This document shows positions 5,946 to 44,796 of a stretch of DNA of 64,000 nucleotides, one piece after another. The notes beneath the pieces are model-generated. The model did no database searches. It was not told where the DNA came from and saw only the letters and a list, made by a program, of their open reading frames with translations. Numbering within the stretch: position 1 is the first letter of the stretch; each line of letters opens with the position of its first letter. The DNA comes from an uncultured Candidatus Rokubacteria bacterium (GTDB lineage Bacteria; Methylomirabilota; Methylomirabilia; Rokubacteriales; CSP1-6): contig CAVVEU010000033.1 in the NCBI GenBank assembly GCA_963747235.1, positions 223,282 through 287,281 of the forward strand, in the 5' to 3' direction. The position numbers and the translations under genes were made by a program.

Positions 5946-7493
5946 CTACGGCCGCATGCGATGGGTGGACGGACCCACTTCGCGCAGCGGCGCGGCCAGC
6001 TCCGCGAACTCGCAGAGCAGCGGGCGCGTGGCGCGCGGGTCGATGATCTCCTCGATCCAGAAGGCCTCCGCCGAGCGGAAGGGCGAGCGAAGCTTCTGCA
6101 GCCGCTCCTCGATCTCGATCATCTTCGCGGCCGGATCGGCGGCGGCCTGGATGTCGGCGCGGTAGGCGGCCTCGATGCCGCCCTCGAGCGGCAGCGAGCC
6201 CCAGCGCCCCGACGGCCACGCGTAGCGCGGGCCGTAGCGCGCCCCCGGCTTGTGGGCCGCGCCGGCCACCCCGAACACGTTCCGGATGATGACCGCGCAC
6301 CACGGAATGGTCGACTGCCAGATCGCGGACATCGCGCGCACGCCCTGCTTGATGGTGCCGGTCTGCTCGGCCTCGAGCCCGATCAGGAAACCCGGGCAGT
6401 CCACCAGGTAGACCACCGGCAGGTGGAAGGTCTGCGCGAAGTCCACGAAGCGCTCCACCTTCTGGCAGGTGTCGGCGGTCCAGGCGCCGCCGTAGAAGTA
6501 GGGATCGCTGGCCAGCACCGCCACCGGCCAGCCGTCGAGCCGGGCGAGGCCGGTGATGATGGCGCGCCCGTAGAGCGGCTGGATCTCGAAGAACGACCCG
6601 CGGTCCACCACCGCCTCCACGATCGCGCGCATCTTGTAGGGCTTGCGGATGTCGCGCGGCACCGCGTCCGAGAGCCACTCCTCACGGCGCTCCCGGTCGT
6701 CGGTCTGCGGGCCGCGCGGCGGCAGCTCGTAGATGGACGAGGGCAGATACGAGAGGAAGCGCCGCGCCACCGCGAAGGCCTCCTCTTCCGTGTCCACCGC
6801 CTGGTCCACCGCGCCCGCCTTGAGCTGGATCTGCCAGCCGCCGAGCTCGTTCTTGGTGAGCTTCTGGCCGAGCCGCGCGACGACGGGCGGGCCGGCCACG
6901 AAGAGCGCCGACTTGTCCTTCACCATCACCGAGAGGTGCGCGGCCGCGAGATGCGCCGCGCCGAGGCCGGCGACCGAGCCCAGGCCCAGCGCCACGCGCG
7001 GCACGGTGCCGATGCTGTTGACGACCCACTCCCAGCCGGCGACGCCGGGCACGTTGGCGCGCCCGGTGGTCTCGATGGTCTTCACCGAGCCGCCGCCGCC
7101 CGAGCCCTCGACGATGCGGATCAGCGGCAGCCGCAGCTCGTTGGCCATCTGCTCGCACTGGTTGTGCTTGCCCTTGATCGTCGCGTCCGCCGAGCCGCCG
7201 CGCACCGTGAAGTCGTCCCCGCCCACCACCACCGGGCGGCCGTCGAGCCGCGCGCGGCCGAAGACGAAGTTCGACGGCGTCAGCTCCTTCAGATCGTTGT
7301 TGGCGTCGTAGGAGGCCTTCCCGGCGATCTTGCCGATCTCGTGGAAGCTCTGCGCGTCCACCAGGCGGTCGATGCGCTCGCGGATCGTGTAGCGCCCGCC
7401 GTCGTGCTGCCGCTTCACCCGCTCGGGGCCGCCGAGGCCCTCGGCGAACTCCTCGCGGCGCTTCAGGTCGTCCATCTCGGACTTCCAGTTCAT
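5946..7493 (-). CDS. acyl-CoA carboxylase carboxyltransferase beta subunit (propionyl-CoA/methylmalonyl-CoA carboxyltransferase family)
   Basis: 516 aa from MNWKSEMDDLKRREE..; family motifs across both CT domains (..GGSADATIKGKHNQCEQMA..; ..AIVEAVVDRGSFFEIQPLYG..); ATG at 7493. Confidence 0.9.
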   Translation of the reverse strand: MNWKSEMDDLKRREEFAEGLGGPERVKRQHDGGRYTIRERIDRLVDAQSFHEIGKIAGKASYDANNDLKELTPSNFVFGRARLDGRPVVVGGDDFTVRGGSADATIKGKHNQCEQMANELRLPLIRIVEGSGGGGSVKTIETTGRANVPGVAGWEWVVNSIGTVPRVALGLGSVAGLGAAHLAAAHLSVMVKDKSALFVAGPPVVARLGQKLTKNELGGWQIQLKAGAVDQAVDTEEEAFAVARRFLSYLPSSIYELPPRGPQTDDRERREEWLSDAVPRDIRKPYKMRAIVEAVVDRGSFFEIQPLYGRAIITGLARLDGWPVAVLASDPYFYGGAWTADTCQKVERFVDFAQTFHLPVVYLVDCPGFLIGLEAEQTGTIKQGVRAMSAIWQSTIPWCAVIIRNVFGVAGAAHKPGARYGPRYAWPSGRWGSLPLEGGIEAAYRADIQAAADPAAKMIEIEERLQKLRSPFRSAEAFWIEEIIDPRATRPLLCEFAELAAPLREVGPSTHRMRP

Positions 7494-7537
7494 GGGGAGA
7501 CCTCCGCGGGGATGGTAGCAGGGCGCGCGCGGGATGC

Positions 7538-7961
7538 CTAGGCGGGGCCGAACACGAGCGAGATGCGATTCCGGTCGTCCGCCCGCCGGTATTCCACGTG
7601 CCGGGCCATGGCGGAGACGAGGAGCACGCCGAGCCCACCCACCGGACGGTCCTGCACGTCCGCGTCCGGATCGGGGCTCACCACCGCCGCGAACGGGTCG
7701 TGCGGCGGGCCGGTGTCCTCGTAGACGAGCGTGATGCGGCCGGGCGCGACGCTCGCAGTCGAGCCGCACCGGCGCGTCGCTGTCCGCGCCGTGCCCGTGC
7801 ACGACCGTGTTGGTGAAGAGCTCCTCCACCAGGAGCGTGACCCGCAGGCACATCGCCCGGTCGAGCCCGGCCGCCGCGCACACCTCGGCGAGGAAGGCCT
7901 CGACCTGCGGCAGGGCGTCGCGGCGGGCGGGGAAGATCCGGAGGTATCGAAGGCCGCTCAC
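7538..7961 (-). CDS. anti-sigma regulatory factor (RsbW/SpoIIAB-like HATPase_c serine kinase), apparent frameshift near 7745
   Basis: N-terminal ..LPQVEAFLAEVCAAAGLDRAMCLRVTLLVEELFTNTVVHG.. then, after a 1-nt shift, ..GRITLVYEDTGPPHDPFAAV..PVGGLGVLLVSAMARHVEYRRADDRNRISLVFGPA*; about 141 aa; immediately upstream of the carboxyltransferase gene on the same strand. Confidence 0.7.
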
Positions 7962-8046
7962 TGAGCTATTGTAAGGGCCGCCGCGAGCGCGTCAACGCTC
8001 TGAGAGAGCCCTGGACCAACGCCGTCGTCGGGAGGAACACCGCGCC

Positions 8047-9069
8047 ATGCTTGATTCTCCTCGCTCATGCCTCTCGCGGCTCATCGCGCGGCTCGCGCTC
8101 GGCGCCTTGGTCTCGGTCGGCCTGGTCGCGGTACCGTGGCTGGCCGCCTCGCAGCCGGCCCAGAAGGTATTCCGGGTCGGTTACCTGTCGGCCACCGGTC
8201 GCACGCCCGACGGCGCGCCGCCCCGCCCCTTTCGCGAGACCTTGCGAGGGCTCGGCTATGTCGAGGGTCAGAACATCGTGTACGAGACGCGCTTTGCGGA
8301 GGCCAAGTTCGAACGGCTTCCGGAGATGGCGGCCGAGCTCGTGCGCCTCAAGGTCGACGTCCTCGTGACGCAGGGGGGATCGGCGACGGTGGCCGCGAAA
8401 CAGGCAACCTCGACCATTCCGATCGTCATGTCGCTGGCCTCCGGGGACGCGGTGGCTACCGGGATGATCGCGAGCCTCGCGCGCCCGGGCCAGAACGTCA
8501 CCGGGTTGACCGACGAATCCATCCAGCTCAGCGCCAAGCGCATGGAGATGCTCAAGGAAGCGGTCCCGAAGGCGGCACGGATCGCCGTCCTCTGGAACGC
8601 CAACGATCAGGGGATGACGCTGCGCTACCGCGAGATCGAGAAGGCGGCGCGGCTCCTCCAGGTGGAGGTGCAGGCGCTCGGCGTGCGCGAGCCGGATGAT
8701 TTCGACGGGGCGTTCTCCACGATGGCGCGACAACGGCCGGACGCCATGTTCCTGGTGGCGGATGCGCTCACGAACCTGAACCGCAAACGCTTCATCGACT
8801 TTGCCTCGGCGCAGCGCATTCCCGCCATGTACGAAACCTACCTCCTCGTCCGGGATGGCGGGCTGATGTCGTACGGGCCCAACTTCGAGGACAGCTTCCG
8901 TCAGGCCGCACTCTACGTCGATCGCATCCTCAAGGGCGCGAAACCCGCGGACCTCCCGGCGCAGCAGCCGACGACCTACATCCTCGCGGTCAACCTCAAG
9001 ACGGCGGCGACGCTGGGCTTGACCTTGCCGCCCTCGCTGCTCCTTCGCGCCGACGAAGTGATCCAGTAG
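8047..9069 (+). CDS. ABC-transporter substrate-binding protein (COG2984/ABC_sub_bind family)
   Basis: 340 aa, signal peptide, family-typical periplasmic-binding-protein-like motifs; intact. Confidence 0.8.
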   Translation: MLDSPRSCLSRLIARLALGALVSVGLVAVPWLAASQPAQKVFRVGYLSATGRTPDGAPPRPFRETLRGLGYVEGQNIVYETRFAEAKFERLPEMAAELVRLKVDVLVTQGGSATVAAKQATSTIPIVMSLASGDAVATGMIASLARPGQNVTGLTDESIQLSAKRMEMLKEAVPKAARIAVLWNANDQGMTLRYREIEKAARLLQVEVQALGVREPDDFDGAFSTMARQRPDAMFLVADALTNLNRKRFIDFASAQRIPAMYETYLLVRDGGLMSYGPNFEDSFRQAALYVDRILKGAKPADLPAQQPTTYILAVNLKTAATLGLTLPPSLLLRADEVIQ

Positions 9070-9136
9070 GCCGAGCCGTCACCCGCGCGGCTTGCTGGAG
9101 AGGTCAGACAAGGCCGGGCGGGCGGAGGCCCGTCAC

Positions 9137-9635
9137 CTATCCCGCGTGAGCCCGCCTCAGCTCCGCGATGTCGATCTTCTTCATGCGCAGCATCGCGGTC
9201 ATGACTCGCTGGGACTTCGCCGGATCGGGGTCCATGAGCAGCTCGACCAGCACGCGGGGCACGATCTGCCAGGAGACGCCGTACCGGTCCTTGAGCCAGC
9301 CGCACTGCTGGGCGTTCGGGTCCCCGCCCTCGGACAGCGTCGTCCAGTAGTGGTCCACCTCGGCCTGGGTCTCGCAATTGACCTGGAGCGAGATGGCCTC
9401 GTTGAACTTGAAGAACGGGCCGCCGTTGAGCGCGGTGAACGTCTGCCCATCCAGCTCGAAGGCGACGGTCATCACCGATCCCGCCGGCCTCCCGTGGATC
9501 TCCTTCCCGGCTTCTCCGTACCGGGACACGGTCACGACCTTCGAGTTCTTGAAGATCGCGGTATAGAACGCGCACGGCCTCCTCGGCCTGATCGTCGAAC
9601 CACAGGCAGGGGGTGATCTTCTGAACGACCGGCAT
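9137..9635 (-). CDS. PhnB-like/VOC-family protein (3-demethylubiquinone-9 3-methyltransferase-like domain), apparent frameshift near 9570
   Basis: Starts MPVVQKITPCLWFDDQAEEAV (ATG 9635, RBS GGAGGA); continues in a second frame ..AIFKNSKVVTVSRYGEAGKE..MTVAFELDGQTFTALNGGP..QQCGWLKDRYGVSWQIVP.. Confidence 0.7.
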
Positions 9636-9717
9636 GGTATTCCTCCTCTGGGGTCATTTCGGCTGACACGCGCCGTCCTCACCAGCTAGTCGCTCGAGGA
9701 CCCCCGGGATCGACACC

Positions 9718-10004
9718 TCATGCTCGGCGCTGGACGTTCCGAAAGCGGGCCGCCCCCTTCGCGCGGGCCTTCGCCGCCTCCGCCTCGCGGTCGCGGGGAC
9801 GGCGCGTTCGTGACGAGCGCATCGAGCAGGACCCGGGCCGCCTGCGCCACCTCATCGACCGCTCGGGTGAACGCCGGCTCGTTGGCCCTGGATGGCCTCG
9901 AGAACCCACTCAGCTTCCGGACGAACTGCAGAGCACGACGCCCGGATCTCCTCCTCCGTGGCCGGCGGCTTGAAGTTGTACAGCGTCTTGATGCTTCGGC
10001 ACAT
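9718..10004 (-). CDS. DUF2277-family small protein, two apparent frameshifts
   Basis: MCRSIKTLYNFKPPATEEEIRAS.. / ..LQFVRKLSGFSRPSRANEPAFTRAVDEVAQAAR.. / ..PRDREAEAAKARAKGAARF.. match the DUF2277 consensus across three frames; ATG 10004 with RBS. Confidence 0.55.
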
Positions 10005-10023
10005 GCGAACACCTCCTTATCTG

Positions 10024-10389
10024 TCAGGTGCTGTATCGAGCATCGACGTATGCCCACGCACGTACTCCCGATCGAAGGACCACCGCCACGCGCTTGACCG
10101 CCGCGACCTCGTACCGGTCGGCATTCTGAATCTCATCTGGCGTGACCGCAAACACCGTCCCCGCGATGACGTCCGAGGCCCGTCCGGTGAACCTGGCCAT
10201 GGTGTGCTGCGCCGTTCCGCTGATCGCAATCACCGCCGGGTCCTCGATCTCCAGCGAGGCCAGCTCGAATCCTACCAAAGCATCGCCGGTACCCGCCAAT
10301 GGCCGACCGAACGTCGCCATCTGTACCGACTCGAGCTGGAGCGTGCCGTACGAGAAGAGGAGCTCAGGGTACGCCTCGTTCACCGCCAT
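10024..10389 (-). CDS. gamma-glutamyl cyclotransferase-like (GGCT/AIG2-like) protein
   Basis: LFSYGTLQ N-terminal motif of the GGCT fold; 121 aa. Confidence 0.55.
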   Translation of the reverse strand: MAVNEAYPELLFSYGTLQLESVQMATFGRPLAGTGDALVGFELASLEIEDPAVIAISGTAQHTMARFTGRASDVIAGTVFAVTPDEIQNADRYEVAAVKRVAVVLRSGVRAWAYVDARYST

Positions 10390-10545
10390 GGGATCTCCGT
10401 TGCCGTCGAGGTTACTTCAAGCGTGCGAGACCACCCTCTGCCGCAAGGATAATGCACCCGCGACCCTGTTCGCCATTTGCGTTGGTGGCGGGCTGCTTCG
10501 TTTGAAGATGGCGGTGGCCTCGCGCCGCCGCCTAGCCGTCCCAGC

Positions 10546-10926
10546 TCAGCCGTCGGCTGGAGCACGCGAGACGACCACGTCCATCGCTCGACGAAGACTA
10601 CGAGAGCCTCTTGGCACTCTCTCGAGCTCGGAGAAGACCGCCTCCCATTGCGGTGGATCGAGCCATTCATAGAGATGGCCGTCATCATCAACATCAATGG
10701 TGGGCGCTAGCGACCGGATGCGCGCCTGCCACGCGGCAAACGCCCGCCTCGACGCGACTGCCTCCAGATGGCTCCGCCACATCAGCCACAGGCCGAGTGC
10801 CATGGCTAGACCGAATAGCCAAAGGAACAGAGGACTCCATGGCCGAGGCCGCACAACGACAAACACGAGAAGGAGTAGCGCCCAGAGAAGATAGTGCGCG
10901 AATTGAGAACGCAGGAACCTAGTCAT
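10546..10926 (-). CDS. hypothetical membrane protein (two predicted TM helices)
   Basis: ORF in the lower-GC islet; hydrophobic segments YLLWALLLLVFVVV and LFLWLFGLAMALGLWLMW; no recognisable family. Confidence 0.4.
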   Translation of the reverse strand: MTRFLRSQFAHYLLWALLLLVFVVVRPRPWSPLFLWLFGLAMALGLWLMWRSHLEAVASRRAFAAWQARIRSLAPTIDVDDDGHLYEWLDPPQWEAVFSELERVPRGSRSLRRAMDVVVSRAPADG

Positions 10927-10985
10927 CGCTCTGGCTCCAAACGTTCGCGCTAACCGGCCGCCGAGGAGCGAAGCGACGAGGGATC

Positions 10986-11004
10986 CCGCAAGCGCAGCTT
11001 GCGG
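10986..11004 (-). terminator. perfect hairpin CCGCAAGC-GCA-GCTTGCGG downstream of the minus-strand methyltransferase operon
   Basis: 8-bp stem and 3-nt loop, 85 nt beyond the methyltransferase stop; no U-tract, as is common in high-GC genomes. Confidence 0.3.
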
Positions 11005-11088
11005 ACGGTCCGGTTGAGCGCGGGGTTAGGGGCCATCCTGGCCGGCGGGCGATACGGGCAGGCGGATACGCGGACGCGTGGCCTTGGG

Positions 11089-11907
11089 CTACGGTTGGGC
11101 GACCGCAATTTGACCTTCAATCGGGAATGCCAATCCGTCATCGTTCAAATAACTCTGCATTGCTTCGGTCACTTGACGGATCAATGCCTCACGCACGGCG
11201 TCGTCGACTTGGGCGACGTGGGTGGCCAGGGGCGAGCCCGCCACTTGATACCGGACGAACGCCGCGGGCGATGCAAAGCGGACCATTCGCACGTCTGCGC
11301 CCACGCGAACTGTTCGGAACCCTGCCTGCGTCAGCAAATCGCGAAGGCCGTCGGTGCGGTCACCAAACACAAACGGTGCGCGCATTACCGCAGCAGCTGC
11401 GGGGCTCACATTCAGTTCTAAGGCCGTCGCCAGGGCGGCAAAGCCAGGACTGTGGGCGAGCGCTCGCCAAACCAAGGTCACCAGGCGCCCAGTGGGCTTG
11501 AGGACCCGATGCATCTCGCGCGCAGCCTGTTGCCGGTCTGGGAAGTATTGGAACCCAAGCTGACAGAACACTGCATCAAAACTGCTCGTGTCAAACGGCA
11601 GCGCCCCGGCATCCCCTTCTCGCCAATCCACTGTCGCACCTCCGGGCGGCGCCGAGCCGCGGGCGCGGGCGAGCATGCCCGGGTTGAGATCAAGGCCTAC
11701 GACATGTCCCGTCGGTCCGACCTGTGGTGCGACCAAGCGCGTAACGGCGCCCGTGCCGCATGCAACGTCGAGCGCATGCTCACCCGCACGAAGTGCCGCT
11801 TGGGCCACGAGTACAGGTGCCCATGGCCCAAAGATGGCGGGCACGAGCTGAGTCTCGTAGACCTCTGGAGCATTGCCGCCGAGTTGCCACCCCTCCGCTT
11901 GACTCAT
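11089..11907 (-). CDS. class I SAM-dependent methyltransferase (Methyltransf_11/25-like)
   Basis: LDVACGTGAVTR motif I, DAVFC motif; probable start MSQAEGWQL. Confidence 0.85.
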   Translation of the reverse strand: MSQAEGWQLGGNAPEVYETQLVPAIFGPWAPVLVAQAALRAGEHALDVACGTGAVTRLVAPQVGPTGHVVGLDLNPGMLARARGSAPPGGATVDWREGDAGALPFDTSSFDAVFCQLGFQYFPDRQQAAREMHRVLKPTGRLVTLVWRALAHSPGFAALATALELNVSPAAAAVMRAPFVFGDRTDGLRDLLTQAGFRTVRVGADVRMVRFASPAAFVRYQVAGSPLATHVAQVDDAVREALIRQVTEAMQSYLNDDGLAFPIEGQIAVAQP

Positions 11908-11945
11908 CTGTGTCTCCTTTGTGGCCCCTACCGGCGGCTTATCCC

Positions 11946-12365
11946 TCATAGGGCTTTCTTCATCAGCGCGAGATAGAAGCCCTTGGCGTAGCCCTCAAGC
12001 CGGACTACCTCCTCGTAGCCATGCTTTTGGTAGAACCGCGGCGCCTGCCACTCGAAGGTCTCGAGAGCCGCGTTTCGCGCCCCCATCTCTCTCGCGAGAC
12101 ACTCGGCCTCAGTCAATAATCGGGAGCCGATGCCCCTCCCGCGCGCAGCCTCGTCAACCCAAAGAACTTCGACACGGAGCCAATAGAGCGCCACAATCGC
12201 TCGAATTCCACCTACGACGGACCCATCGGCCTCTCGGGCGTTGAGCCGAATGTACTCCGTCGCCGGGTACTCGCCGACATACGTATGGTTGAACTCGCGA
12301 AGCCGGCGACCAATCTCACCGGACTGAACCTCTTCTTCGGTGGCAAGCGAAATGGTGACAGTCAT
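11946..12365 (-). CDS. GNAT-family N-acetyltransferase
   Basis: ..VDEAARGRGIGSRLLTEAE.. acetyl-CoA binding motif (R-x-x-G-x-G/A); 139 aa. Confidence 0.85.
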   Translation of the reverse strand: MTVTISLATEEEVQSGEIGRRLREFNHTYVGEYPATEYIRLNAREADGSVVGGIRAIVALYWLRVEVLWVDEAARGRGIGSRLLTEAECLAREMGARNAALETFEWQAPRFYQKHGYEEVVRLEGYAKGFYLALMKKAL

Positions 12366-12380
12366 GAGGGATAACGTGCG

Positions 12381-12695
12381 TTAGGTGGAATACGCAGGGC
12401 CACCTACGCCAGGAACCACCATCGTTTTAAGGATTACCGATTCCCGGTCGGTTGCCAACGACAACAGCTCGAGGTCAGCGCGATAGGCAGCGAACTGTTC
12501 CTGACCAGGGAAGCTGACAAGATGTATCTCAAACGGGATATCCGGCGAATTCTCTTGCCCCGTGCGAATCACCTTTTCGATTGAGCCGCCATACTTCCTC
12601 ATGATTCGGGCCGCCTTTCGCTCATAGGCTTCGAATTCAGCAACGGCGCCTGGGCGGACCCACAGACTTACGACCCGATAGATTGGACTCTGCAC
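12381..12695 (-). CDS. DUF1330-domain protein
   Basis: About 104 aa; ..EFEAYERKAARIMRKYGGSIEKVIRTG..EIHLVSFPGQEQFAAYRADLE.. typical of DUF1330 (dimeric alpha/beta barrel). Confidence 0.65.
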   Translation of the reverse strand: MQSPIYRVVSLWVRPGAVAEFEAYERKAARIMRKYGGSIEKVIRTGQENSPDIPFEIHLVSFPGQEQFAAYRADLELLSLATDRESVILKTMVVPGVGGPAYST

Positions 12696-12797
12696 TCAAA
12701 CCTCCAAGCCCACCCAACGATTTGTTAGACGCCCTCAAACGGCAACTAGCCACCGCGAGTACACACCCTCTATCAGGTCAGTACCTGTCACATGTGC

Positions 12798-13250
12798 TCA
12801 GCGGGAAGTCTGCTGCCCGAGCTCTTGGGCAAGCCCGATGAGAATTCCTTCGGGGCCGCGGATGTAGCAGAGCCGATACATGTCTTCGTACTGGACCACT
12901 TTGCCGACGAGCTCCGCGCCGCGTTTGCCGAGCCGGGCGAGCGTATCGTCGACGTCCTCCACGGTGAACATGACGCGCAGGTAACCGAGAGCGTTCACCG
13001 GGGCGCTGCGGTGATCGGCGACCACAGGCGGCGCGAGAAATCGGGACATCTCGAGCCGGCTGTGACCGTCCGGTGTACGCATCATGGCAATCTCGACGCG
13101 CATGTCGCGCAATCCAGTGACGCCATCTGCCCAGGCTCCTTCGATTGGAGCGCGCCCCTCGAGCTCGAGGCCAAGTTCGGTGAAGAACTCAATGGCGGCG
13201 TCGATGTCTTCTACCACGATGCCGACGTTGTCCATACGCTTCACCGTCAT
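12798..13250 (-). CDS. VOC-family protein (glyoxalase/bleomycin-resistance fold)
   Basis: MDNVGIVVEDIDAAIEFFTELGLELEGR..; 150 aa. Confidence 0.8.
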   Translation of the reverse strand: MTVKRMDNVGIVVEDIDAAIEFFTELGLELEGRAPIEGAWADGVTGLRDMRVEIAMMRTPDGHSRLEMSRFLAPPVVADHRSAPVNALGYLRVMFTVEDVDDTLARLGKRGAELVGKVVQYEDMYRLCYIRGPEGILIGLAQELGQQTSR

Positions 13251-13261
13251 GATGTCTCCTT

Positions 13262-13337
13262 GGCGTCTAACGATCCCGCTCAGCGGCCGGGGTGAGCAAC
13301 GCGAACCCCGGTCCGCTGCAGTGGGAAGTTAGACGCC
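13262..13337. repeat. 10-bp perfect inverted repeat GGCGTCTAAC...GTTAGACGCC flanking a nested GC hairpin; a third copy of the 10-mer at 12724-12733
   Basis: Direct reading of the sequence; sits between the VOC gene start and the small membrane gene stop, and the third copy lies in the DUF1330 promoter region. Confidence 0.6.
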
Positions 13338-13595
13338 TCACTGCGACAAGCCGCGGGCCAACATGTAAATACCGGCCGCACCCACCAGGACCGACACCAC
13401 GCCAATCGCTCGGGTGACAAGCACGTAAGCCCGACTCCCTAAGTACCGCGCTCCCGAACGGGTCACGGCAATTCCCTCGGCTCTGGGGGCCAGGCGCCGC
13501 TGATTCGACTCGGCCGTCGACAGGCAGTAAATGCCTACAACCACAAACACCACGCTCACGAACCAGGGAAATACAGAACTGAGAACGTGTCCCAC
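13338..13595 (-). CDS. small hypothetical membrane protein (two TM helices)
   Basis: 85 aa, two hydrophobic helices; no family recognised. Confidence 0.4.
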   Translation of the reverse strand: MGHVLSSVFPWFVSVVFVVVGIYCLSTAESNQRRLAPRAEGIAVTRSGARYLGSRAYVLVTRAIGVVSVLVGAAGIYMLARGLSQ

Positions 13596-13659
13596 TCTGC
13601 CCTACCCCCTCAATCCCGGGCCCCCACCAGTGCGTCTCTAACTAGAAGTATCTAGGTCT

Positions 13660-13707
13660 GGATAATTCGGCCGGGCGCGGGCTTGATGCGGATAATCCGG
13701 CCGGGCG
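13660..13707. promoter_or_regulatory. direct repeats GGATAATTCGGCCGGGCG / GGATAATCCGGCCGGGCG (30-bp periodicity) upstream of the FecR-OmpA pair
   Basis: Two 18-bp copies with one mismatch; each contains a GATAAT hexamer (Fur-box-like unit). Confidence 0.4.
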
Positions 13708-13926
13708 GACCGGGGCGGTTTGGCTGGAGCGGCTTTGGGGGATGCGGGGTTGCGCATGGTCCCGTGGTGCGGGTCTAGTTTTACACAGACCTGGACATTT
13801 CTGGATGGGAGCTCGGGGGACGGGGTGCGGGAGTTCCGGCCGACGGGTTCGACGCTTTGCGCTATGATGAGGCGCTCTCGGCCCGGATGCGCTCGGGCCT
13901 CGATCCCCGCAGTCGAAGGAGACGGT

Positions 13927-14376
13927 ATGAAGCGCATGGTTCTCTCGCTGGTCGTGGTGGTGGCGGCTCTCGGGGTGGCGCCGGCGGGCGCTCAGGAGGC
14001 CGGGCATATCAAGGTGGCCAAGGGCGCGGTGCAGATCGAGCGGGCCGGGCAGAAGGTGCCGGCCACGCTGGGCGCGGTGGTGCAGGCCGGTGACGTGGTG
14101 GTGACGGGGGCCGATGGGTCGGTGGGCATCACCTTCCTGGACAACAGCCTGCTGTCCGCGGGGCCCAACAGCGTGCTCGCGATCGATCGCTTCGCCTTCG
14201 ACTCGACCACGCACCAGGGCTCCTTCGAGAGCTCGCTCAAGAAGGGCACGCTCGCCGTCGTCTCCGGCAAGCTCGCCAAGCAGTCGCCGGACGCCATGAA
14301 GGTGAAGACGCCCGCCGCGGTGCTGGGCGTGCGCGGCACCGAGTTCCTCGTCCGCACCGGCGACCCGAAGAACTGA
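13927..14376 (+). CDS. FecR-domain protein (periplasmic, signal peptide)
   Basis: MKRMVLSLVVVVAALGVAPAGAQ signal; ..GDVVVTGADGSVGITFLDNSLLSAGPNSVLAI..VLGVRGTEFLV.. FecR/DUF4880-like beta-sandwich motif; RBS GGAGAC. Confidence 0.7.
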   Translation: MKRMVLSLVVVVAALGVAPAGAQEAGHIKVAKGAVQIERAGQKVPATLGAVVQAGDVVVTGADGSVGITFLDNSLLSAGPNSVLAIDRFAFDSTTHQGSFESSLKKGTLAVVSGKLAKQSPDAMKVKTPAAVLGVRGTEFLVRTGDPKN

Positions 14377-14390
14377 CGCGCGGCGCGGCG

Positions 14391-14991
14391 ATGGCCAGCC
14401 GGGCCGCCCTCGCGGCGCTCGCACTGCTCCTCCTGGTGGGCTGCGCCAAGCCCATGCGCGACGATCTCTACGTGCTGATGCCGGACAAGGACGGCAAGAC
14501 CGGCGTGCTCAGCGTGGAGAGCGGCGGCCAGCAGGCCGTCCTCGATCAGCCCTATGCCTCCGCGCGCGTGACGGAGCCGGGCCGCGTGGCGGCGGGCCCG
14601 ATCACGGAGCAGGAGGCCCGCCGGGCCTTCTCGGGCGCGCTGGACGCGCAGCCGCCGCGGCCGACGTCCTTCATCCTCTACTTCCTCGAGGGCCGGGACG
14701 AGCTGACCCCGGACTCCCGCCAGCTCCTCGGCCGCATCGTGGACGAGATCGCCCGGCGGCCCGCGCCGGAGATCATCGTCATCGGCCACACCGACCGGGT
14801 CGGCGCGGTGCCCTACAACGACACGCTCTCGCTCCGGCGCGCCGAGCGGGTGCGGGACGAGCTGGTGAAGGTCGGCATCGCGGCCGACCGCATCCGGGTG
14901 GAAGGGCGCGGGGAGCGCGAGCCGCTCGTGCCGACGCCGGACGAGGTGGCCGGAGCCGCGGAATCGGCGGGTGGAGATCAACGTCCGGTAG
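14391..14991 (+). CDS. OmpA-family lipoprotein, apparent frameshift near 14950
   Basis: Lipobox LLVGCA; OmpA C-domain IVIGHTDRVGAVPYNDTLSLRRAERVRDELVKVGIAADRIRVEGRGEREPL; canonical end ..EPRNRRVEINVR* only in the +1 frame (TAG 14989-14991). Confidence 0.75.
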
Positions 14992-14992
14992 A

Positions 14993-15041
14993 GCCCCTCA
15001 GGGGCCCCTCACCCTGCCCTCTCCCCTGAGGGGAGAGGGAG
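14993..15041. repeat. dispersed palindromic repeat, copy B
   Basis: CCCCTCAGGGGCCCCTCACCCTGCCCTCTCCCCTGAGGGGAGAGGGAGAG between convergent genes. Confidence 0.85.
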
Positions 15042-15043
15042 AG

Positions 15044-17190
15044 TCAGGTGCCGGTGTAGCGGATGATCAGGACCGCCATGTCGTCTGACGGCTCGGTGCC
15101 ACCGGTGAAGGCGGCCACGTCGCGGCGGATCGCTTCACCCACCTCGGCCGCGCTCGCCGCCCCGCCCACGCGACCCAGCAGCGCGTGGAGCCGCTCCCGG
15201 CCGTAGAGCTGCCCGTCGGGGCCGGCCGCCTCGGTGATGCCGTCGGTGAACAGGCACAGCGTGTCGCCGGGCTCGAGCCGGCGCGTCGCCGGCACGTAGG
15301 GAAACCCGTCCACCGCAGCAGAGCGGCGGGCCCCCGCCCTCGGCCAGGCGGCAGCAGCGCGCGGCCGCCGCGCGGGAGCAGCAGCGGCGGCTCGTGGCCC
15401 GCGCTGCAGTACTCGAGCTCGCCGGTGCGGGCGTCGAGGATGCCGGCCAGCACCGTGACGAAGAGGTCCTCCGCGTTGTCGCGCGAGATCTCCGCGTTGG
15501 CCTCGCGCATCATCACCGCCACCTGGCCGTGCCGGCGCAGCGCGGTGCTCTTGTAGAGCGCCTTGCTGATCGCCATGAAGAGGCTGCCGGGCAGGCCCTT
15601 GCCCGAGACGTCGCCGATCATGAAGAAGAGATGGTCGGCATCCAGCAGAAAGAAGTCGTACAGGTCGCCGCCGACCTCGCGCGCGGGCTCCAGCATCGCG
15701 TACAGATCGAAGCGGCGTCTCGCCCGGAAAGGCGGCCGCCGCGCGCGGCAGGGTGCCCATCTGGATCCGGCGCGCGGCCTCCAGCTCGCCGGCCAGCCGC
15801 GCCGCCGCCTCCCGCTGCTGCTCCACCTGCCGGCGCAGCGCGCGACGCTGCGTCTGGGTCTCGGTGAGGGTGACCACGAGCATCATGGAGAACAGCAGGG
15901 CGAGGGCCACGGAGGGGACGGCGACGTCCAGGAGGACGCCCATCCTCAGATAGAGGAGCAGCCCGAACCCCGCCATCGCCGCGACCAGGACGGCGAGCAG
16001 TCCCACCGACGCGCGGGCCGGCAGCCGCGGCACCAGCCCGATGAGGAGCAGTCCGCCGACCAGCAGCCAGCCGATCTCGATCCACCGGACGAACCGCGGA
16101 CGCGAGAGCAGCGATCCCTCCACGATGTTCTCGAGCAGCTGGGCGTGGATCTCGACGCCCGCCATGTGATCGCCCACCGGCGTCGCCAGATGATCCGACA
16201 AGCCGAGCGCGGTCACGCCGATGAGCACCAGGCGACCCTGGAAGAGGCTCGCATCCGCCTGGCCCGCGAGCACGTCGGCCGCCGACACGAAGCGATCGGG
16301 ATCGTGCCGGGTGTAGTGGACCCAGGCGCTGCCGTCCGGGTCGCTGGGAGCCACGAAGGCGCCCACCCCCACCGACTGGATGCCGCGCGGCGGAGACGCG
16401 CACCGAGATCGGGGGCCCGCCTTCCCGCCACGCGGAGCATCTCGAGGCCGAGCGACGGAACCAGCCGCGCCGGCCGACCATGGCCAGCAGGGGGACGCGG
16501 CGGACCACCCCACGCTCCAGGTCCACGCTGGTCAGGCCGTGGCCGAGCGCGGCACGGTCGATCTCATCCACGCTGTGCAGCGCGGCCTCGAAGCGACGGA
16601 GGAAGGGCGCGGGATCGCCGCCGATCGAGCGCACCGGCGCGTGACGGACCTCGGTCGTCGCCTCCGGCGCGCGGCTCTCGAGGCCGGCGATGCCGAGCAC
16701 CACCGGTTGCCCGCGCATCGCCTCGGCCAGCACCGTGTCGTTCCCGCGCAACCGCGAGAGCCGCTGCGCCATGTCGGCGTCCAATGCCGGCCACCATCTC
16801 GGGCAGCCGGGCCGGCGAGAGACGGTCGGGCTCCGCCATGAGGATGGCCAGGCCGATGGCGGCCGGCCGCGCGGCCGCGACCGTCCCCACGATTCGCGCC
16901 AGCCAGGTGCGCGGCCACGGCCACTGCCCGTGCTGCCGCAGGCTCTCCTCGTCGATGGCGACGATGACCACCGGGGCCGTGCGCGGGACGCGCGGGTGGA
17001 GGCTCTGGTAGGTGTCGAACGTGCTAGCGCGCAGCAGGCGGAGCCCCGGCAGCTCCGGCAGCAGCAGCCCGAGCAGGAGCGCGGCCAGCAGCAGCGCGCC
17101 GGCCGGCCGGCCGCGCCCGCCCAGGAGCGCGCGGGCCCACCGCCGCTCCGCCCAGTGCGAGGCGGCCGCGGGCCGCTGGTCGGACGACGT
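15044..17190 (-). CDS. CHASE2 sensor domain + PP2C/SpoIIE serine phosphatase (RsbU/RsbP-like), at least three apparent frameshifts; start approximate
   Basis: N-terminal TM + CHASE2 (..VVIVAIDEESLRQHGQWPWPRTWLARI..), several TM helices, then PP2C (..LEPAREVGGDLYDFFLLDADHLFFMIGDVSGKGLPGSLFMA.. and ..PGDTLCLFTDGITEA..) across three frames. Confidence 0.7.
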
Positions 17191-17210
17191 CGATGCTCAG
17201 GCCGGTCTCC

Positions 17211-18167
17211 TCAGAGCGCGAGCTCCAGGCCGTCGTAGGCGGCCCAGACCTCCACGCGGTGATCGGTCCGCGTGATCTCCTCGAGCCGGCGCGTCTCGGC
17301 CAGCAGCCGGGCGATGCGCTCGTCGTCGAAGATCGGCTCGTGGTGATAGAGGCAGAGGCGGCGGGCCCGCGCGAGCTGGCACATCTCCACGCCCACCACG
17401 TTGCTCGAGTGCCCCCAGTCCTCCTTGACCGAGATGGCGTCGGCGAGCGAGTACTGGGCGTCGAAGATCACGAGGTCGGCGTCGCGGAAGAACTCCACGA
17501 ACGCGGCCACCTCGTCCGGGTCGTCCTGCTTGTGCTCGGAGTCGGTGGAGTAGACGACCACCTTGCCGCGCTGCTCGATGCGGTAGCCGTAGGAATCGCC
17601 GCCGTGGTGCTGGCGCTTCGCCCGGACGCGGAGGCCCGCGATGTCGTAGTTCCGCTCGGGCTCGAGCCGCACGAACTCGATGCGCGCTTCCATCCTCGAG
17701 AAGTCCACCGGGAAGGACGGGGCGCGGTTCTGCCGGCGGAACGCTTCCTCCAGCGTGTCGTGGCAGCCGTAGATCGTCACGTGGTTGCCGGGCAGGTACG
17801 CGGGCATGAAGAACGGGAAGCCCATGATGTGGTCCCAGTGCAGGTGCGACATGAAGACGTGGAACCGGTGCCCGGAGGGCCCGCGCGTGGCGAGCAGCGA
17901 GTTGCCGAAGGCCCGCGCGCCGCTGCCCAGGTCGCAGAGCACGTAGTCGGCGCCGTCGGTCTCGAGCTGCACGCAGGAGGAGTTGCCCCCGAAGGTGTGG
18001 GAGACCGAGAAGTCGAGCTCGTTCTCGACGAAGGCGCGCGCCTTGCCCGGGGTGTCGAGCCCGCGGCCCGCCGCGGCCACCAGCGCGGTGACGAGCTTGC
18101 GCTGCACCTCGGCGGAGGTCATGGCCACCGGGATCGAGCCGCGGGTGCCCCAGAAGCGGACGCGCAC
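17211..18167 (-). CDS. MBL-fold metallo-hydrolase
   Basis: GTG start VRVRFWGTRGSIP; HxHxDH motif (SHLHWDHIMG); 318 aa. Confidence 0.8.
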   Translation of the reverse strand: MRVRFWGTRGSIPVAMTSAEVQRKLVTALVAAAGRGLDTPGKARAFVENELDFSVSHTFGGNSSCVQLETDGADYVLCDLGSGARAFGNSLLATRGPSGHRFHVFMSHLHWDHIMGFPFFMPAYLPGNHVTIYGCHDTLEEAFRRQNRAPSFPVDFSRMEARIEFVRLEPERNYDIAGLRVRAKRQHHGGDSYGYRIEQRGKVVVYSTDSEHKQDDPDEVAAFVEFFRDADLVIFDAQYSLADAISVKEDWGHSSNVVGVEMCQLARARRLCLYHHEPIFDDERIARLLAETRRLEEITRTDHRVEVWAAYDGLELAL

Positions 18168-18175
18168 GCCCGGCC

Positions 18176-18551
18176 TCAGGCCGACTCGAAGGCGGCCAGC
18201 GCGGCGGGCGAGAGCTTGGCCAGGGCCTCCCGCAGCGTGGGGAAGACCTCGAGGACCAGGTTGAAGCGGCTGATCTCGAAGATCTCGCGCACCACCGGCT
18301 GCAGGTCCGCCACCGCGAGCGCGCCGCCCTGGGCCTTCACCTGCTTGCTCGCGAGCATGAGCACGCGCAGCCCGACGCTGCTGATGTACTCCACCCCGGC
18401 CAGGTCGATCACCGCGCGATCGCGCCCGGATGCGACGGCGGCCAGATGCGGCGCCAGCGCGGCCTTGAAGGCGTCCGCGCGTCGCGTGATCGATCCGCCC
18501 GGTAGGAAAGAGCGCCACGGTGTCGGCGAAGCGCTTTGTGGCCAGCTCCAT
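18176..18551 (-). CDS. STAS-domain anti-sigma-factor antagonist (RsbV/SpoIIAA-like), apparent frameshift near 18490
   Basis: MELATKRFADTVALFPTGRID.. then, after the shift, ..ADAFKAALAPHLAAVASGRDRAVIDLAGVEYISSVGLRVLM.. (conserved phospho-Ser region). Confidence 0.7.
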
Positions 18552-18599
18552 GGGGGACCGATTCTAACACCGGGGCCGGCTGTGGCACACTGGGACGTC

Positions 18600-19833
18600 T
18601 TGGACAAATCAGACCTCCTCAGCCAGTTGCGTATCGACCGCGGGGCGGACCGTCCGCCGCGCCGGCGCACCCGTCTGTACATCATCCTCGCGGCGGCCGG
18701 TGCTCCTCCTGGGCGGCGGGCTCTGGTTCGGCGTGCTCCGCGCGCGGCCCCTGGTGGTGCAGACCGCGGTGGCGCGCGCGGCCGGCCAGGGCGGCGGGGC
18801 CGGCTCGGTGCTCGACGCGAGCGGCTACGTCACCGCCCGGCGCCAGGCCACCGTCTCCGCCAAGATCACCGGCAAGGTGACCGAGGTGCTGATCGAGGAA
18901 GGCCAGCGCGTGCGCGAGGGCGCGGTGCTCGCCCGGCTCGACGACACCGAGGCGCAGGCGCAGCTCGGGCTCACGCGGGCCCAGCTCGTCGCCGCGCGCT
19001 CCCAGCTCGCCGAGGTCCAGGCCCAGCTCGTCCAGGCCGAGCAGGACCACGCGCGCCAGAAGGAGCTCCACGACCGCAAGCTCATCGCGCCGCAGGCGCT
19101 CGACGCCGCGCTGGCCCAGCGCGACATGCTGCGGGCGCGCCTGGGCGCCACCGAGGAGCAGGTCAAGGTCGCGCAGCAGTCGCAGTCGGTCGCCCAGGTG
19201 CAGCTCGACAACACGGTGATCCGCGCCCCGTTCAGCGGCGTGGTCATCGCCAAGTCGGCGCAGCCCGGCGAGATGATCTCGCCGATCTCGGCGGGCGGCG
19301 GCTTCACGCGCACCGGCATCGGCACCATCGTGGACATGGACTCGCTGGAGATCCAGGTGGACGTCAACGAGTCCTACATCAACCGCGTGACCCCCGGCCA
19401 GCCGGTGGAGGCGACGCTCAACGCCTATCCGGACTGGAAGATCCCCGGCGAGGTGATCGCGATCATCCCGACCGCGGACCGGAGCAAGGCCACCGTCAAG
19501 GTCCGCATCGCGATCAAGACGAAGGACGCGCGCATCGTGCCCGACATGGGCGCGCGCGTGGGCTTTCTCGACAGCAAGCCCGCGGCCGGGGCGCCGGCCC
19601 CCGCCCCCAGCGTGCTGGTGCCGGCGGACGCGGTGCGCACCGAGGGCGACGCGTCGGTGGTCTTCGTCTACACCGCGAGCGGCAAGGTCGAGCGGCGGAG
19701 CGTGACGCTGGGACCCGACGTCTCCGGCCAGCGTCGCGTGCTGAGCGGCCTGCGCGACGGCGAGCGCGTGGTGCTCGCCCCGCCGCCCACGCTGGCCGAC
19801 GGCCAGGCGGTGAAGCCGGCCGAGAGCAAGTGA
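18600..19833 (+). CDS. efflux transporter periplasmic adaptor subunit (HlyD/MacA family), apparent frameshift near 18700
   Basis: N-terminal ..DKSDLLSQLRIDRGADRPPRRRTRLYIIL.. + TM, coiled-coil hairpin, lipoyl/beta-barrel domains (..VIRAPFSGVVIAKSAQPGE..); the TTG start is tentative. Confidence 0.8.
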
Positions 19834-20528
19834 GCGCGGTGCCCACCCTGGTCGAGATCCGCGGCGTCACCAAGGTCTACAAGCGCGGCCGCGAGCGCAT
19901 CGAGGTGCTGCACGGCATCGATCTCGACATCCCGAGCGGGGACTTCGTGGCCCTCATGGGGCCGTCGGGCTCGGGCAAGACCACGCTGCTGAACCTGATC
20001 GGCGGGCTCGACACCCCGACCGACGGCAGCATCACGGTGGGGGACCGGCGCATCGATCGGCTCTCGGGCGGGGAGCTGGCCGCCTGGCGGGCCGGCCACG
20101 TGGGCTTCGTCTTCCAGTTCTACAACCTGCTGCCCGCGCTCTCGGCCCAGCGGAACGTGGAGCTGCCGCTGCTCCTGACCGATCTCTCCGCGTCCGAGCG
20201 CCGCCGGCGCGCCCACATCGCGCTGACGCTGGTCGGCCTCGAGGATCGCGCCCGGCACAAGCCGCGCGAGCTCTCGGGCGGCCAGGAGCAGCGCGTGGCC
20301 ATCGCGCGCGCCATCGTCTCCGATCCCACCCTGCTGGTCTGCGACGAGCCCACCGGCGATCTCGACCGCGCCACCGCCGACGAGGTGCTGCGCCTCATCC
20401 AGATGCTCAACCGCGAGCACGGCAAGACGGTGGTGATGGTCACCCACGATCCCAAGGCCGCGGAGTACGCGCGGCGGCGCGTGCACCTCGACAAGGGGAC
20501 GATGACCGCGGAGCCCGTCTCCGCGTGA
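19830..20528 (+). CDS. ABC transporter ATP-binding protein (MacB/LolD-type)
   Basis: GPSGSGKTT, LSGGQEQRVAIARA, LLVCDEPTGDLD; GTG start overlaps the adaptor stop. Confidence 0.9.
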   Translation: MSAVPTLVEIRGVTKVYKRGRERIEVLHGIDLDIPSGDFVALMGPSGSGKTTLLNLIGGLDTPTDGSITVGDRRIDRLSGGELAAWRAGHVGFVFQFYNLLPALSAQRNVELPLLLTDLSASERRRRAHIALTLVGLEDRARHKPRELSGGQEQRVAIARAIVSDPTLLVCDEPTGDLDRATADEVLRLIQMLNREHGKTVVMVTHDPKAAEYARRRVHLDKGTMTAEPVSA

Positions 20529-21688
20529 GATACCTCCCCCTGCTCTGGGCCGGTCTCTTCCGCAAGAAGACGCGCACGGTCCTCACGCTGCTCTCCATCG
20601 TGGTGGCCTTCGCCCTCTTCGGCCTCCTGCAGGCGGTGCAGGTCGCCTTCGAGTCGGGCGCCGACGCGGCCGACGCCAAGCGCCTGCTCACCACCGCGCG
20701 CTACTCCATCATCGAGCCGCTGCCCATGTCCTACCTGCGCCGGATCGAGCAGGTGCCGGGCGTGGTGGGCGTGGCCTCCGCGGACTGGTTCGGGGCCAAG
20801 TACCAGAACGAGTCCAATGCCTTCCCGGTCTTCGCGGTGGACCCGGCGCGCTACCTGGACATGTACCCGGAGTTCACCATCGAGCGCGCGCATCGCGAGG
20901 CCTTCGCGCGGACGCGCACCGGCGCGATCGCGGGCAAGCGACTGGCCGATCGCTTCGGCTGGAAGGTCGGGCAGAAGCTGCCGATCAGCTCGGAGATCCA
21001 CGCCAAGACCGACGGCAGCCTGAACTGGGAGTTCGACCTGGTCGGCATCCTCGACGCCGACGATCCGGCGGTGCGCGGCAACACCGACATGGTCCTGATC
21101 AACGTGGCCTACTTCGACGAGGCCCGCCAGATCGGCCGCGGCAAGACCGGCTGGTACATCGTGCGCGTGGCCGACTCCACCCAGGCCCGCGCCATCTCGG
21201 CGACGATCGACACCCTCTTCACGAACTCGCCCGACGAGACCAAGACCCAGCCCGAGAAGGAGTTCGCGCTGGGCTTCGCCAAGCAGATCGGCGACATCGG
21301 CGCGCTGGTCACCCGCATCCTGATCGCGGTGTTCTTCACCATCCTGATCCTGACCGGCAACACGATGGCCCAGTCCATCCGCGAGCGCATCCCGGAGCTG
21401 GCGATTCTCAAAACGCTCGGCTTCTCCGACGGCAAGGTCACCGCGCTGGTGCTCGCGGAGGCGGTCCTGCTGCTGATCCTGGGCGGCGCCATCGGCATGG
21501 GCGCGGCGGTGGCCGCCATGCCCGCGCTCAACGGCTCCACCGGCGGCCGCTTCCCCCCGCTCTTCGTCGGCCCCGAGACCTGGCTCCTGGCCGCCGCCAT
21601 CGCGGCCCTCGTCGCGCTCTGCATCGGCCTCCCCCCCGCCCTGCGCGCCAACCGCCTGAAGATCGTCGACGCCTTGTCCGGGCACTAG
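20525..21688 (+). CDS. ABC transporter permease, FtsX-like (MacB-type), copy 1
   Basis: 387 aa, N-terminal TM, large periplasmic domain, C-terminal three-TM FtsX domain. Confidence 0.85.
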   Translation: MRYLPLLWAGLFRKKTRTVLTLLSIVVAFALFGLLQAVQVAFESGADAADAKRLLTTARYSIIEPLPMSYLRRIEQVPGVVGVASADWFGAKYQNESNAFPVFAVDPARYLDMYPEFTIERAHREAFARTRTGAIAGKRLADRFGWKVGQKLPISSEIHAKTDGSLNWEFDLVGILDADDPAVRGNTDMVLINVAYFDEARQIGRGKTGWYIVRVADSTQARAISATIDTLFTNSPDETKTQPEKEFALGFAKQIGDIGALVTRILIAVFFTILILTGNTMAQSIRERIPELAILKTLGFSDGKVTALVLAEAVLLLILGGAIGMGAAVAAMPALNGSTGGRFPPLFVGPETWLLAAAIAALVALCIGLPPALRANRLKIVDALSGH

Positions 21689-21883
21689 AGGCACTCGGTG
21701 CGGTTCATGACGCGCGCAGGTACGGCATTGATCTTATTGGGGGGGAGCGGCGGCGCTCCTCCCCCAAGCCCCCCCACCGCATCATTCACTTGCGCGGGGC
21801 CGGTTCCGGTCTGCGGGCGGACATCCGTCGACCACAGGTCTGCTCGATGCGCACGCTGACTCAGATCGTCGGCCATCACCCTC

Positions 21884-23041: not shown

Positions 23042-23107
23042 CTCGCTTGCCGCCCCCGGGCTAGCCTCGGGCGGTCAGGCAAGCCGACCAGCCCAGGAGG
23101 CCTCCCC

Positions 23108-24795: not shown

Positions 24796-24832
24796 GAGCC
24801 TCCGCGGCCCCCGGCGGAACCCGCCGGAAATT

Positions 24833-24867
24833 AGGGTTGACAACCCTTCTTCATTAGGTTTACCTAA
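24833..24867. promoter_or_regulatory. two adjacent palindromes (AGGGTTG-A-CAACCCT and TTAGGT-TT-ACCTAA) upstream of the TonB-dependent receptor; candidate operator(s)
   Basis: Perfect 7-1-7 and 6-2-6 inverted repeats; the first embeds TTGACA; 140 bp upstream of the receptor start. Confidence 0.45.
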
Positions 24868-25004
24868 GTCCCGCCCCGGTCGTGGACCGGGGCCGGCCGG
24901 TTCCCGAGCGCGAGGACCCCGCCGAAACGATTCGCTAGCCAGCCTCCGGTTTCGCGACCCAAGCTAGCCAGCCCGGTCAGCCCACTTCTCCCGGGAGGCA
25001 TCGC

Positions 25005-27177: not shown

Positions 27178-27187
27178 ACCCCGCGCC

Positions 27188-31305: not shown

Positions 31306-31319
31306 GACGGACCAACGCC

Positions 31320-32376: not shown

Positions 32377-32418
32377 CGCCGGCGCTCCGCCCCGCACGCC
32401 TTCTTCGACGACGTCTCC

Positions 32419-33929: not shown

Positions 33930-33975
33930 ACGACGCGCGCAATCCCGCCGATCATGGAGCACCGCCGCGAGCACC

Positions 33976-42727: not shown

Positions 42728-42749
42728 GATGGCTCTCCTCTTCTGGCTC

Positions 42750-44749: not shown

Positions 44750-44796
44750 GAGACACCGCCGCCGGCCGGGTGTGAAACGGCCCCCCCCGGCGCGCG

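Follow-up and report, generated by a model that had tools for sequence, protein, structure and literature searches.

The 64-kb window of DNA analysed here comes from an uncultured Candidatus Rokubacteria bacterium; it has ~72% GC overall, the rest of the genome lies outside view, and the nearest relatives of its proteins are found in Candidatus Rokuibacteriota/Methylomirabilota. Within this window lie six genes that bring together a partner-switching system and proteins of the cell envelope: a single-domain STAS protein of the anti-sigma antagonist type, a metallo-beta-lactamase (MBL)-fold hydrolase, a CHASE2 sensor joined to a SpoIIE-type PP2C phosphatase, a secreted FecR-domain protein, an OmpA-domain lipoprotein, and a serine kinase of the RsbW/SpoIIAB type (Table 1). 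Genes were called from Pfam matches on sequences in which extra bases had been deleted by hand to repair the frame; the window was compared with a contig from the Joint Genome Institute (JGI contig L002; 95.4% identity over 12.9 kb, genes intact throughout). An earlier reading made from the DNA letters alone, hereafter the sequence-only reading, had described the STAS, MBL, and CHASE2-PP2C genes as a tightly packed minus-strand operon divergent from a MacAB-type efflux operon, and both descriptions hold: Pfam identifies all three products, only 8 nt separate the STAS stop from the MBL start, and the genes on the far side encode MFP, ABC, and FtsX proteins. That reading had passed over the FecR and OmpA genes, which converge on the phosphatase gene from its other side.

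Table 1. Features of the window, with positions counted from its first nucleotide (aa, amino acids)
Feature	Position	Strand	Details
SDR gene	5930->5154	-	after Carboxyl_trans
Carboxyl_trans gene	7493->5946	-	Pfam 5.5e-84; 44 nt downstream of kinase
RsbW/SpoIIAB-type serine kinase (HATPase_c_2)	7538..7961	-	140 aa after deleting extra base 7751
Accessory insertion between kinase and FecR	8047..13700	.	5.7 kb; GC 61-67% vs ~72% in the window
ABC_sub_bind (in insertion)	8047-9069	+	Pfam
3-dmu-9_3-mt (in insertion)	9137-9682	-	Pfam
Lower-GC island (61-63%)	9100-13700	-	small genes: 3-dmu-9_3-mt, DUF2277, GGACT-like, class I methyltransferase, GNAT, glyoxalase/VOC, two open reading frames without family
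Secreted FecR-domain protein	13927..14376	+	~149 aa; Pfam FecR 1.3e-12
OmpA-domain lipoprotein	14391..~14991	+	~199 aa; Pfam OmpA 7e-19; C-terminus shifted by extra base near 14951
CHASE2 / three transmembrane helices / coiled linker / SpoIIE-type PP2C phosphatase	15044..~17139	-	~697 aa after repair
MBL-fold hydrolase	17211..18167	-	318 aa, frame intact; Pfam Lactamase_B_2 3e-18
Single-domain STAS protein (anti-sigma antagonist type)	18175..18551	-	124 aa after deleting extra base near 18480
+1 insertion sites (window 1-27200)	solute-binding protein 765-1756, ABC ATPase 3438-4510, 7751, ~14951, 15315-16786, ~18480, ~18698, 24576, 24753, 25125

After repair, the phosphatase matches CHASE2 (3.5e-54) and SpoIIE (9e-39, positions 2-191 of 192), and its 2697 homologues of ~690 aa are intact, the best of them 93% identical and 707 aa long. 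The STAS protein matches Pfam STAS (2e-18), scores 68.7 bits against the NCBIfam model ant_ant_sig, over the cut-off of 53.45, and retains the serine aligned with Ser58 of SpoIIAA, a residue that does not vary among the STAS proteins of the cassettes or in any STAS encoded near an RsbW or SpoIIE gene. The kinase matches HATPase_c_2 (9e-22, positions 1-126 of 127), its N-box EELFTNTVVHG and its DTG and GGLG motifs can be read straight from the sequence, the repaired protein reads ...LDCEVAPGRI... as its relatives do, and all 948 homologues are intact at ~140 aa (best 97% identical). The earlier placement of a HATPase_c-type kinase at 7538-7961 is thus borne out in location and domain, but not as a gene span, for the 424 nt are not a multiple of 3 and the extra base shifts the frame. 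As the same reading had proposed, kinase, STAS protein, and PP2C phosphatase do make up a partner-switching set, and its sensor, CHASE2, is extracytoplasmic. Of the two genes that it had missed, the FecR gene encodes a protein 87% identical to the FecR protein of relative L006 (tblastn, residues 1-149), with a signal-peptide-like N-terminus observed in relatives, and the OmpA gene encodes a lipobox (LLVGC) and is 98% identical to L002 over residues 1-187, the frame being lost beyond.

It is gene order that ties these six genes together. In the Rokubacteria/Methylomirabilota relatives (phosphatase identity of 64-93%), as well as in a distant lineage (L011), the same arrangement is kept, with STAS, MBL, and CHASE2/PP2C in a row, OmpA and FecR convergent on them, and the kinase divergent from FecR; in one relative (L010), the start codons of FecR and the kinase are 217 nt apart. 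A cross-phylum sample, in which diverse MBL relatives were aligned and one genome per species was scanned, yielded 80 loci that were annotated with custom profiles. Of these 80 species-level loci, 32 contain the full set of six genes, and the hosts of the complete cassette comprise Burkholderiales, Alpha-, Gamma-, and Deltaproteobacteria, Binatus, and Rokubacteria, with the cultured strains Duganella flavida FT135W and Rugamonas sp. CCM 8940 among the carriers; the Duganella locus was confirmed gene by gene with Pfam. The kinase directly adjoins FecR in 31 of the 32 complete cassettes, at 80-310 nt measured between domain envelopes, and FecR is kept adjacent to the CHASE2 sensor gene in 39 of the 80 MBL loci. 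Judged from such neighbourhoods, the FecR protein of the window is the probable partner of its CHASE2 sensor.

In the window, the slot between the kinase and FecR holds a substrate-binding gene and a lower-GC island of small genes (Table 1), and its content varies from relative to relative: it is empty in L010, carries one small open reading frame (ORF) in L006, and carries other genes in L005, L008, and L003, while BLASTN finds only patches in common between this region and the sister contig L001. As the comparison indicates, the gap is due to accessory genes inserted specifically in this lineage. The sequence-only reading had regarded the system as split and the kinase as an orphan, a view that does not survive the near-constant adjacency of the kinase and FecR elsewhere; on the evidence of conserved order, the six genes are one signalling cassette that in the window is separated by an insertion and was not ancestrally split. 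The cassette was not described in any literature found by searches that paired CHASE2 with partner switching, PP2C, or SpoIIE/STAS, and nothing was found on a combination of CHASE2, FecR, and OmpA; the literature searched was limited, and this is absence of evidence only. A role in anti-phage defence was rejected, as PADLOC gave no match for the cassette proteins and matched only the generic kinase domain of a giant fusion protein of the MBL family.

Within the operon, conservation is highest for the MBL-fold hydrolase, which is 99% identical to its counterpart in L002, while the repaired PP2C and STAS proteins reach 96-98%. The HxHxDH motif and the remaining metal ligands (residues H108, H110, D112, H113, H188, D209, H253, and H275 in all) show no variation across the family alignment. 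The folds nearest to its structural model are those of ElaC, RNase Z, YhfI, PhnP, PDE1, and Apyc1, all phosphodiesterases (Foldseek E-values of 4e-13 to 7e-7, with Apyc1 ranking 29th), and this points to a phosphodiesterase-type enzyme with an RNase Z/ElaC/PhnP/YhfI-like fold, as far as a predicted model can. The fold and the HxHxDH binuclear-metal motif are common to the cassette enzyme and to RNase Z/ElaC, YhfI, PhnP, class II PDE1, and Apyc1, whereas identity to these is ~20%, and the cassette enzyme has its own N-terminal FWGxRGS motif, a helical insert, and a regular tie to STAS. We reject an assignment as RNase Z, PhnP, or Apyc1, since the scores lie far under the family cut-offs: the RNase Z model TIGR02651 gives 60.2 bits against a cut-off of 293, with a Protein Data Bank (PDB) RNase Z matched at 1e-5 over partial length only, the cyclic-nucleotide phosphodiesterase model NF041851 gives 56 bits against 400, and the matches to Pfam Anti-Pycsar_Apyc1 are weak.

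The connection between STAS and MBL reaches beyond the operon into protein fusions. The MBL family comprises 6497 cluster representatives at E<=1e-3, and the best 150 of these include 46 proteins exceeding 400 aa; in 44 of the 46, a STAS domain adjoins the MBL domain. Seven of the fusions are of the STAS-MBL type (two of them <400 aa), four are MBL-STAS, and 35 are MBL-STAS-Pkinase, in many cases with AAA_16 and TPR after the kinase domain. Because STAS-MBL fusions recur in both orders, the MBL protein appears to be more than a passenger, and the sequence-only reading was right to see a meaningful oddity in an MBL gene lying between the antagonist and its phosphatase. Separate genes are also found together in distant loci, as RsbW-STAS-MBL in Armatimonadota, as MBL beside STAS-RsbW, and as STAS divergent from MBL with SpoIIE nearby in Leptospira. 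No description of a STAS-MBL pair was found in the literature searched for MBL, metallo-beta-lactamase, and Lactamase_B_2, a search limited in reach. Phosphorylation of the same STAS serine by the fused Hanks kinase was considered and is unsupported, the serine being missing in those fusions. Giant proteins of 1200-1640 aa, in which MBL, STAS, a Hanks Ser/Thr kinase, AAA_16 (STAND), and TPR follow one another in this order, occur as P0388, P0392, and P0398 and at the Chloroflexi loci L068, L075, and L077.

We think it reasonably probable that the six genes form an envelope-sensing cassette that drives a STAS phospho-switch controlling the MBL hydrolase. Partner-switching modules are common and, to our knowledge, their outputs outside Firmicutes are mostly unknown; likewise, we know of no ligand for the CHASE2 sensor domain. 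In the mechanism that we propose, an envelope or other extracytoplasmic cue would be sensed by the periplasmic CHASE2 domain, probably acting with the secreted FecR protein and with the OmpA lipoprotein, which binds peptidoglycan, and this sensing would set how active the cytoplasmic PP2C domain is. A phosphate on the conserved STAS serine would then be removed by the PP2C domain and added by the RsbW-type kinase. These steps follow from what is established for the Rsb/SpoIIA systems and from residues that are conserved. Which partner STAS binds may in turn depend on its phosphorylation state, with one state binding the kinase and the other binding or releasing the MBL phosphodiesterase, so that the output would most likely be this enzyme, reached directly or via its release from the kinase, and no sigma factor. 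Here the fusions and the co-conservation of the MBL gene suggest the output. Domain identities, gene order and its conservation across phyla, the STAS-MBL fusions, the phospho-serine, and the metal ligands are thus observed, whereas the binding partners, the signal, and the MBL substrate are what we infer.

The main rival to the MBL hydrolase as output is a classical anti-sigma switch, in which the kinase would sequester a sigma factor encoded elsewhere, dephosphorylated STAS would free it, and the MBL protein would be a passenger or accessory enzyme. In systems of the Rsb/SpoIIA type, the sequestered target is a cognate sigma factor, usually encoded in the same operon. The cassette shares with RsbU-RsbV-RsbW and SpoIIE-SpoIIAA-SpoIIAB of Bacillus a SpoIIE-family PP2C phosphatase, a single-domain STAS protein with its phospho-serine retained, and a small HATPase_c_2 serine kinase, and this trio is the canonical Rsb/SpoIIA set, as the anti-sigma alternative would predict. 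It differs from them in having no sigma factor in or beside it, in a phosphatase that is a membrane CHASE2 sensor, in the added and conserved MBL, FecR, and OmpA genes, and in a kinase that is divergent and outside the STAS operon. As the sequence-only reading had stated, the window contains no group-3 sigma factor; the only sigma factor in it is of the extracytoplasmic function (ECF) type, at ~44.2-44.8 kb and 26 kb off. The flanks of 31 cassettes (115 ORFs) contain no family more than five times, and the 14 families found in two or more of these flanking ORFs include no sigma family. Nor does an anti-sigma role sit easily with the fusions in both orders and with an MBL protein that is better conserved than the PP2C and STAS proteins beside it. 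We therefore regard the anti-sigma switch as unlikely, although it is the strongest of the alternatives, and the non-sigma output raised by the sequence-only reading as plausible.

Partner switches that end on an enzyme do have precedents. SiaABCD of Pseudomonas aeruginosa and HptB-HsbR-HsbA-HsbD share with the cassette a sensor PP2C and a serine kinase that toggle a small antagonist-like protein controlling an enzyme of the same locus, a logic cited in PMC9239204, where SiaABCD is discussed as a case of STAS/PP2C/kinase control of an enzyme. The output of those two systems is a GGDEF diguanylate cyclase, whereas the candidate in the cassette is an MBL-fold phosphodiesterase; SiaC is no Pfam STAS protein, unlike the cassette antagonist; and both systems lack CHASE2/FecR/OmpA sensing. 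The phosphatase scores 40.6 bits against the SiaA model NF038263, with a cut-off of 700, and the cassette contains no GGDEF gene, the one GGDEF gene seen, unrelated to the cassette, lying beside the Duganella locus only. For the sensory half, the pairing of CHASE2 with FecR has been described before, and in the literature searched only two papers turned up for it (PMC5192318, PMC9239204): a Burkholderia BiofilmReg CHASE2 histidine kinase occurs with a LysM-FecR protein, and a Campylobacterota CHASE2 adenylate cyclase clusters with a FecR protein and a cyclic AMP phosphodiesterase (PMC9239204). Common to these pairs and to the cassette is a CHASE2 transmembrane sensor gene beside a secreted FecR-domain protein, with a phosphodiesterase also present in the Campylobacterota cluster. 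The output of the published pairs is a histidine kinase or a cyclase, in contrast to the PP2C that would feed a STAS switch here, and the OmpA lipoprotein and the MBL-type hydrolase are particular to the cassette.

The Campylobacterota cluster also bears on a further alternative, in which the MBL protein would act upstream and modulate STAS or the kinase, as an input that binds a ligand or degrades a second messenger, the true output lying elsewhere. Such a position is consistent with the phosphodiesterase clustered with those cyclases and with the giant fusions, which place MBL at the N-terminal 'sensor' position (MBL-STAS-Pkinase-STAND-TPR). The invariant catalytic metal ligands are more in line with an active enzyme than with a pure sensor, and the cassette encodes no other candidate output, so we consider an MBL input distinctly improbable.

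Several observations do weigh against control of the MBL hydrolase by a STAS switch fed by its own kinase and phosphatase. Five or six species loci have no RsbW kinase within 5 kb, and the kinase can thus be unlinked from the other genes. In the Pkinase fusions, the residue equivalent to Ser58 is replaced, and the relation between STAS and MBL is therefore not always driven by phosphorylation. MBL relatives below ~45% identity mostly have no detectable STAS neighbour, and the MBL model has a pLDDT of 74, which is moderate confidence only. Finally, the view is of 64 kb of a genome, so a sigma factor or another target may lie elsewhere, as the anti-sigma alternative would have it.

The repairs on which the gene calls depend also need to be accounted for. 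As written, the kinase carries one extra base, the STAS gene one, and the CHASE2-PP2C gene eight (16786, 16476, 16469, 16427, 16385, 15717, 15348, and 15315), which amounts to ten frameshifts in three of the four signalling genes, all of them overlooked by the sequence-only reading. The result is two false ORFs on the minus strand, one of 671 aa (window 5946-7961), in which the N-terminal half of the kinase runs into the carboxyltransferase frame, and one of 446 aa (window 17211-18551), in which the N-terminus of STAS runs into the MBL frame; automatic gene callers would list both as unusually long proteins. Deleting the eight extra bases from the phosphatase gene gives a single open frame with no internal stop, and the other repaired genes have no internal stops either. 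Length differs from L002 by a single base at 15 sites well inside coding sequence, and at every one of them it is the window that has the additional base, in most cases a C preceding a G on the gene strand; a lone missing base at 15050, beside the phosphatase stop and in a poorly aligned stretch, was left out of this count. In total, ~20 insertions, all +1, break nine genes in window 1-27200, with no deletions, and besides the kinase, STAS, and PP2C genes they affect OmpA, the MFP gene, and a TonB receptor, as well as a solute-binding protein, an ABC ATPase, and an amidohydrolase, each of these last three twice. Values of dN/dS against L002 are 0.18 for STAS, 0.16 for MBL, and 0.25 for PP2C, with 0.05-0.33 for neighbouring genes.

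Because the shifts are always +1, are spread over nine genes, and coincide with purifying dN/dS and intact homologues, they are, on sequence comparison, assembly errors and not biology, and the pattern looks like systematic long-read consensus error in high-GC DNA. True pseudogenes, that is, a partner-switching system decaying in this strain, are very improbable by comparison. Decay would be in keeping with the concentration of frameshifts in three of four genes and above all in PP2C, and with a lost phosphatase start: the closest relative uses TTG where the window reads TGG at 17139, and no in-frame ATG, GTG, or TTG lies between the upstream stop at 17199 and 16971. The clustering (8 insertions within the 2.1 kb of PP2C, whereas the 4.2 kb of FtsX/ABC/MBL have none) likewise counts against assembly error. 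Decay does not account for the same insertions in unrelated genes, for the lack of deletions and of stops after repair, for the signalling-gene dN/dS of 0.18-0.25, or for L001 and L003, sister long-read contigs that are broken in different genes. Programmed frameshifting was also rejected, as the insertions are window-wide, always +1, and off slippery sites, and the repaired genes are under purifying selection. Elsewhere in the window, a codon-position GC model switches frame without stops at 42700-45800, 49900-51900, and 51900-54500, which suggests further indel errors, and within these stretches a sensor-like region and the ECF sigma factor share one mechanical ORF of 525 aa. As a caution for annotation, single-base insertions in a high-GC long-read assembly yield false fusion ORFs as well as false pseudogenes.

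On the other side of the kinase lie the carboxyltransferase and SDR genes, which, as the sequence-only reading had noted, follow immediately downstream on the same strand. The name pccB given to the first of them is unsupported at the family level, since the carboxyltransferase scores 292 bits against TIGR01117 (PccB) with a cut-off of 999; no biotin carboxylase was noticed among the window translations, for which no formal scan was made. Both genes are kept behind the kinase in the Rokubacteria relatives; a pseudouridine synthase and an ABC transporter are unrelated neighbours that are equally syntenic within this lineage. A Carboxyl_trans gene follows the kinase in one of the 31 cassette flanks, the Rokubacteria-type locus, and there is no conserved seventh gene or target beside the kinase, the small ORFs upstream of it differing in each relative. 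Because the flanks are unconserved and both L011 and Duganella lack the carboxyltransferase and SDR genes, the adjacency is, from this comparison, a neighbourhood inherited within one lineage by unrelated genes. A STAS switch regulating acyl-CoA metabolism through the kinase, for which the short same-strand gap and its retention in relatives might speak, can thus be dismissed as barely credible, and with it go the functional link between kinase and carboxyltransferase, rejected by the cross-lineage comparison, and the tie to fatty-acid or propionate metabolism that had been suggested earlier.

The wider surroundings of the cassette are also specific to the lineage in part. MacAB-like efflux, amidohydrolase, TonB-dependent receptor, PKHD 2OG-oxygenase, TonB, TPR, and PepSY genes adjoin it in Rokubacteria (window 18582-27200, L002, and L008) and not in other phyla, and a Band_7/SPFH protein and zinc-ribbon neighbours are found near it both in the window (31310-34000) and in the distant relative L010 (2687-5695). 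Further along, on the minus strand at 42750-44820, the gene after the ECF sigma factor (near 44.5 kb) encodes a protein in which an anti-sigma-like N-terminus (HxxxCxxC; ZAS) is fused to O6-methylguanine methyltransferase (MGMT) and Ada zinc-binding domains. A LigD-like multidomain ligase gene (minus strand, with frame switches) adjoins Ku (54599 onward, plus strand) at 51900-55900, forming a repair pair for non-homologous end joining.

The components of the cassette all come from known families, and its logic resembles that of known enzyme-output partner switches. It links partner switching to CHASE2 sensing and supplies a specific, testable output enzyme. More tentatively, STAS and the MBL phosphodiesterase may be a widespread, undescribed pair and a new class of partner-switching output, in which an envelope signal received through CHASE2, FecR, and OmpA would be passed by STAS phosphorylation to the control of a phosphodiesterase that possibly degrades a cyclic or other nucleotide messenger, and which in other phyla may also be wired to Hanks-type kinase/STAND/TPR proteins. 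As the cassette occurs in cultured, tractable bacteria such as Duganella and Rugamonas, the idea is directly testable.

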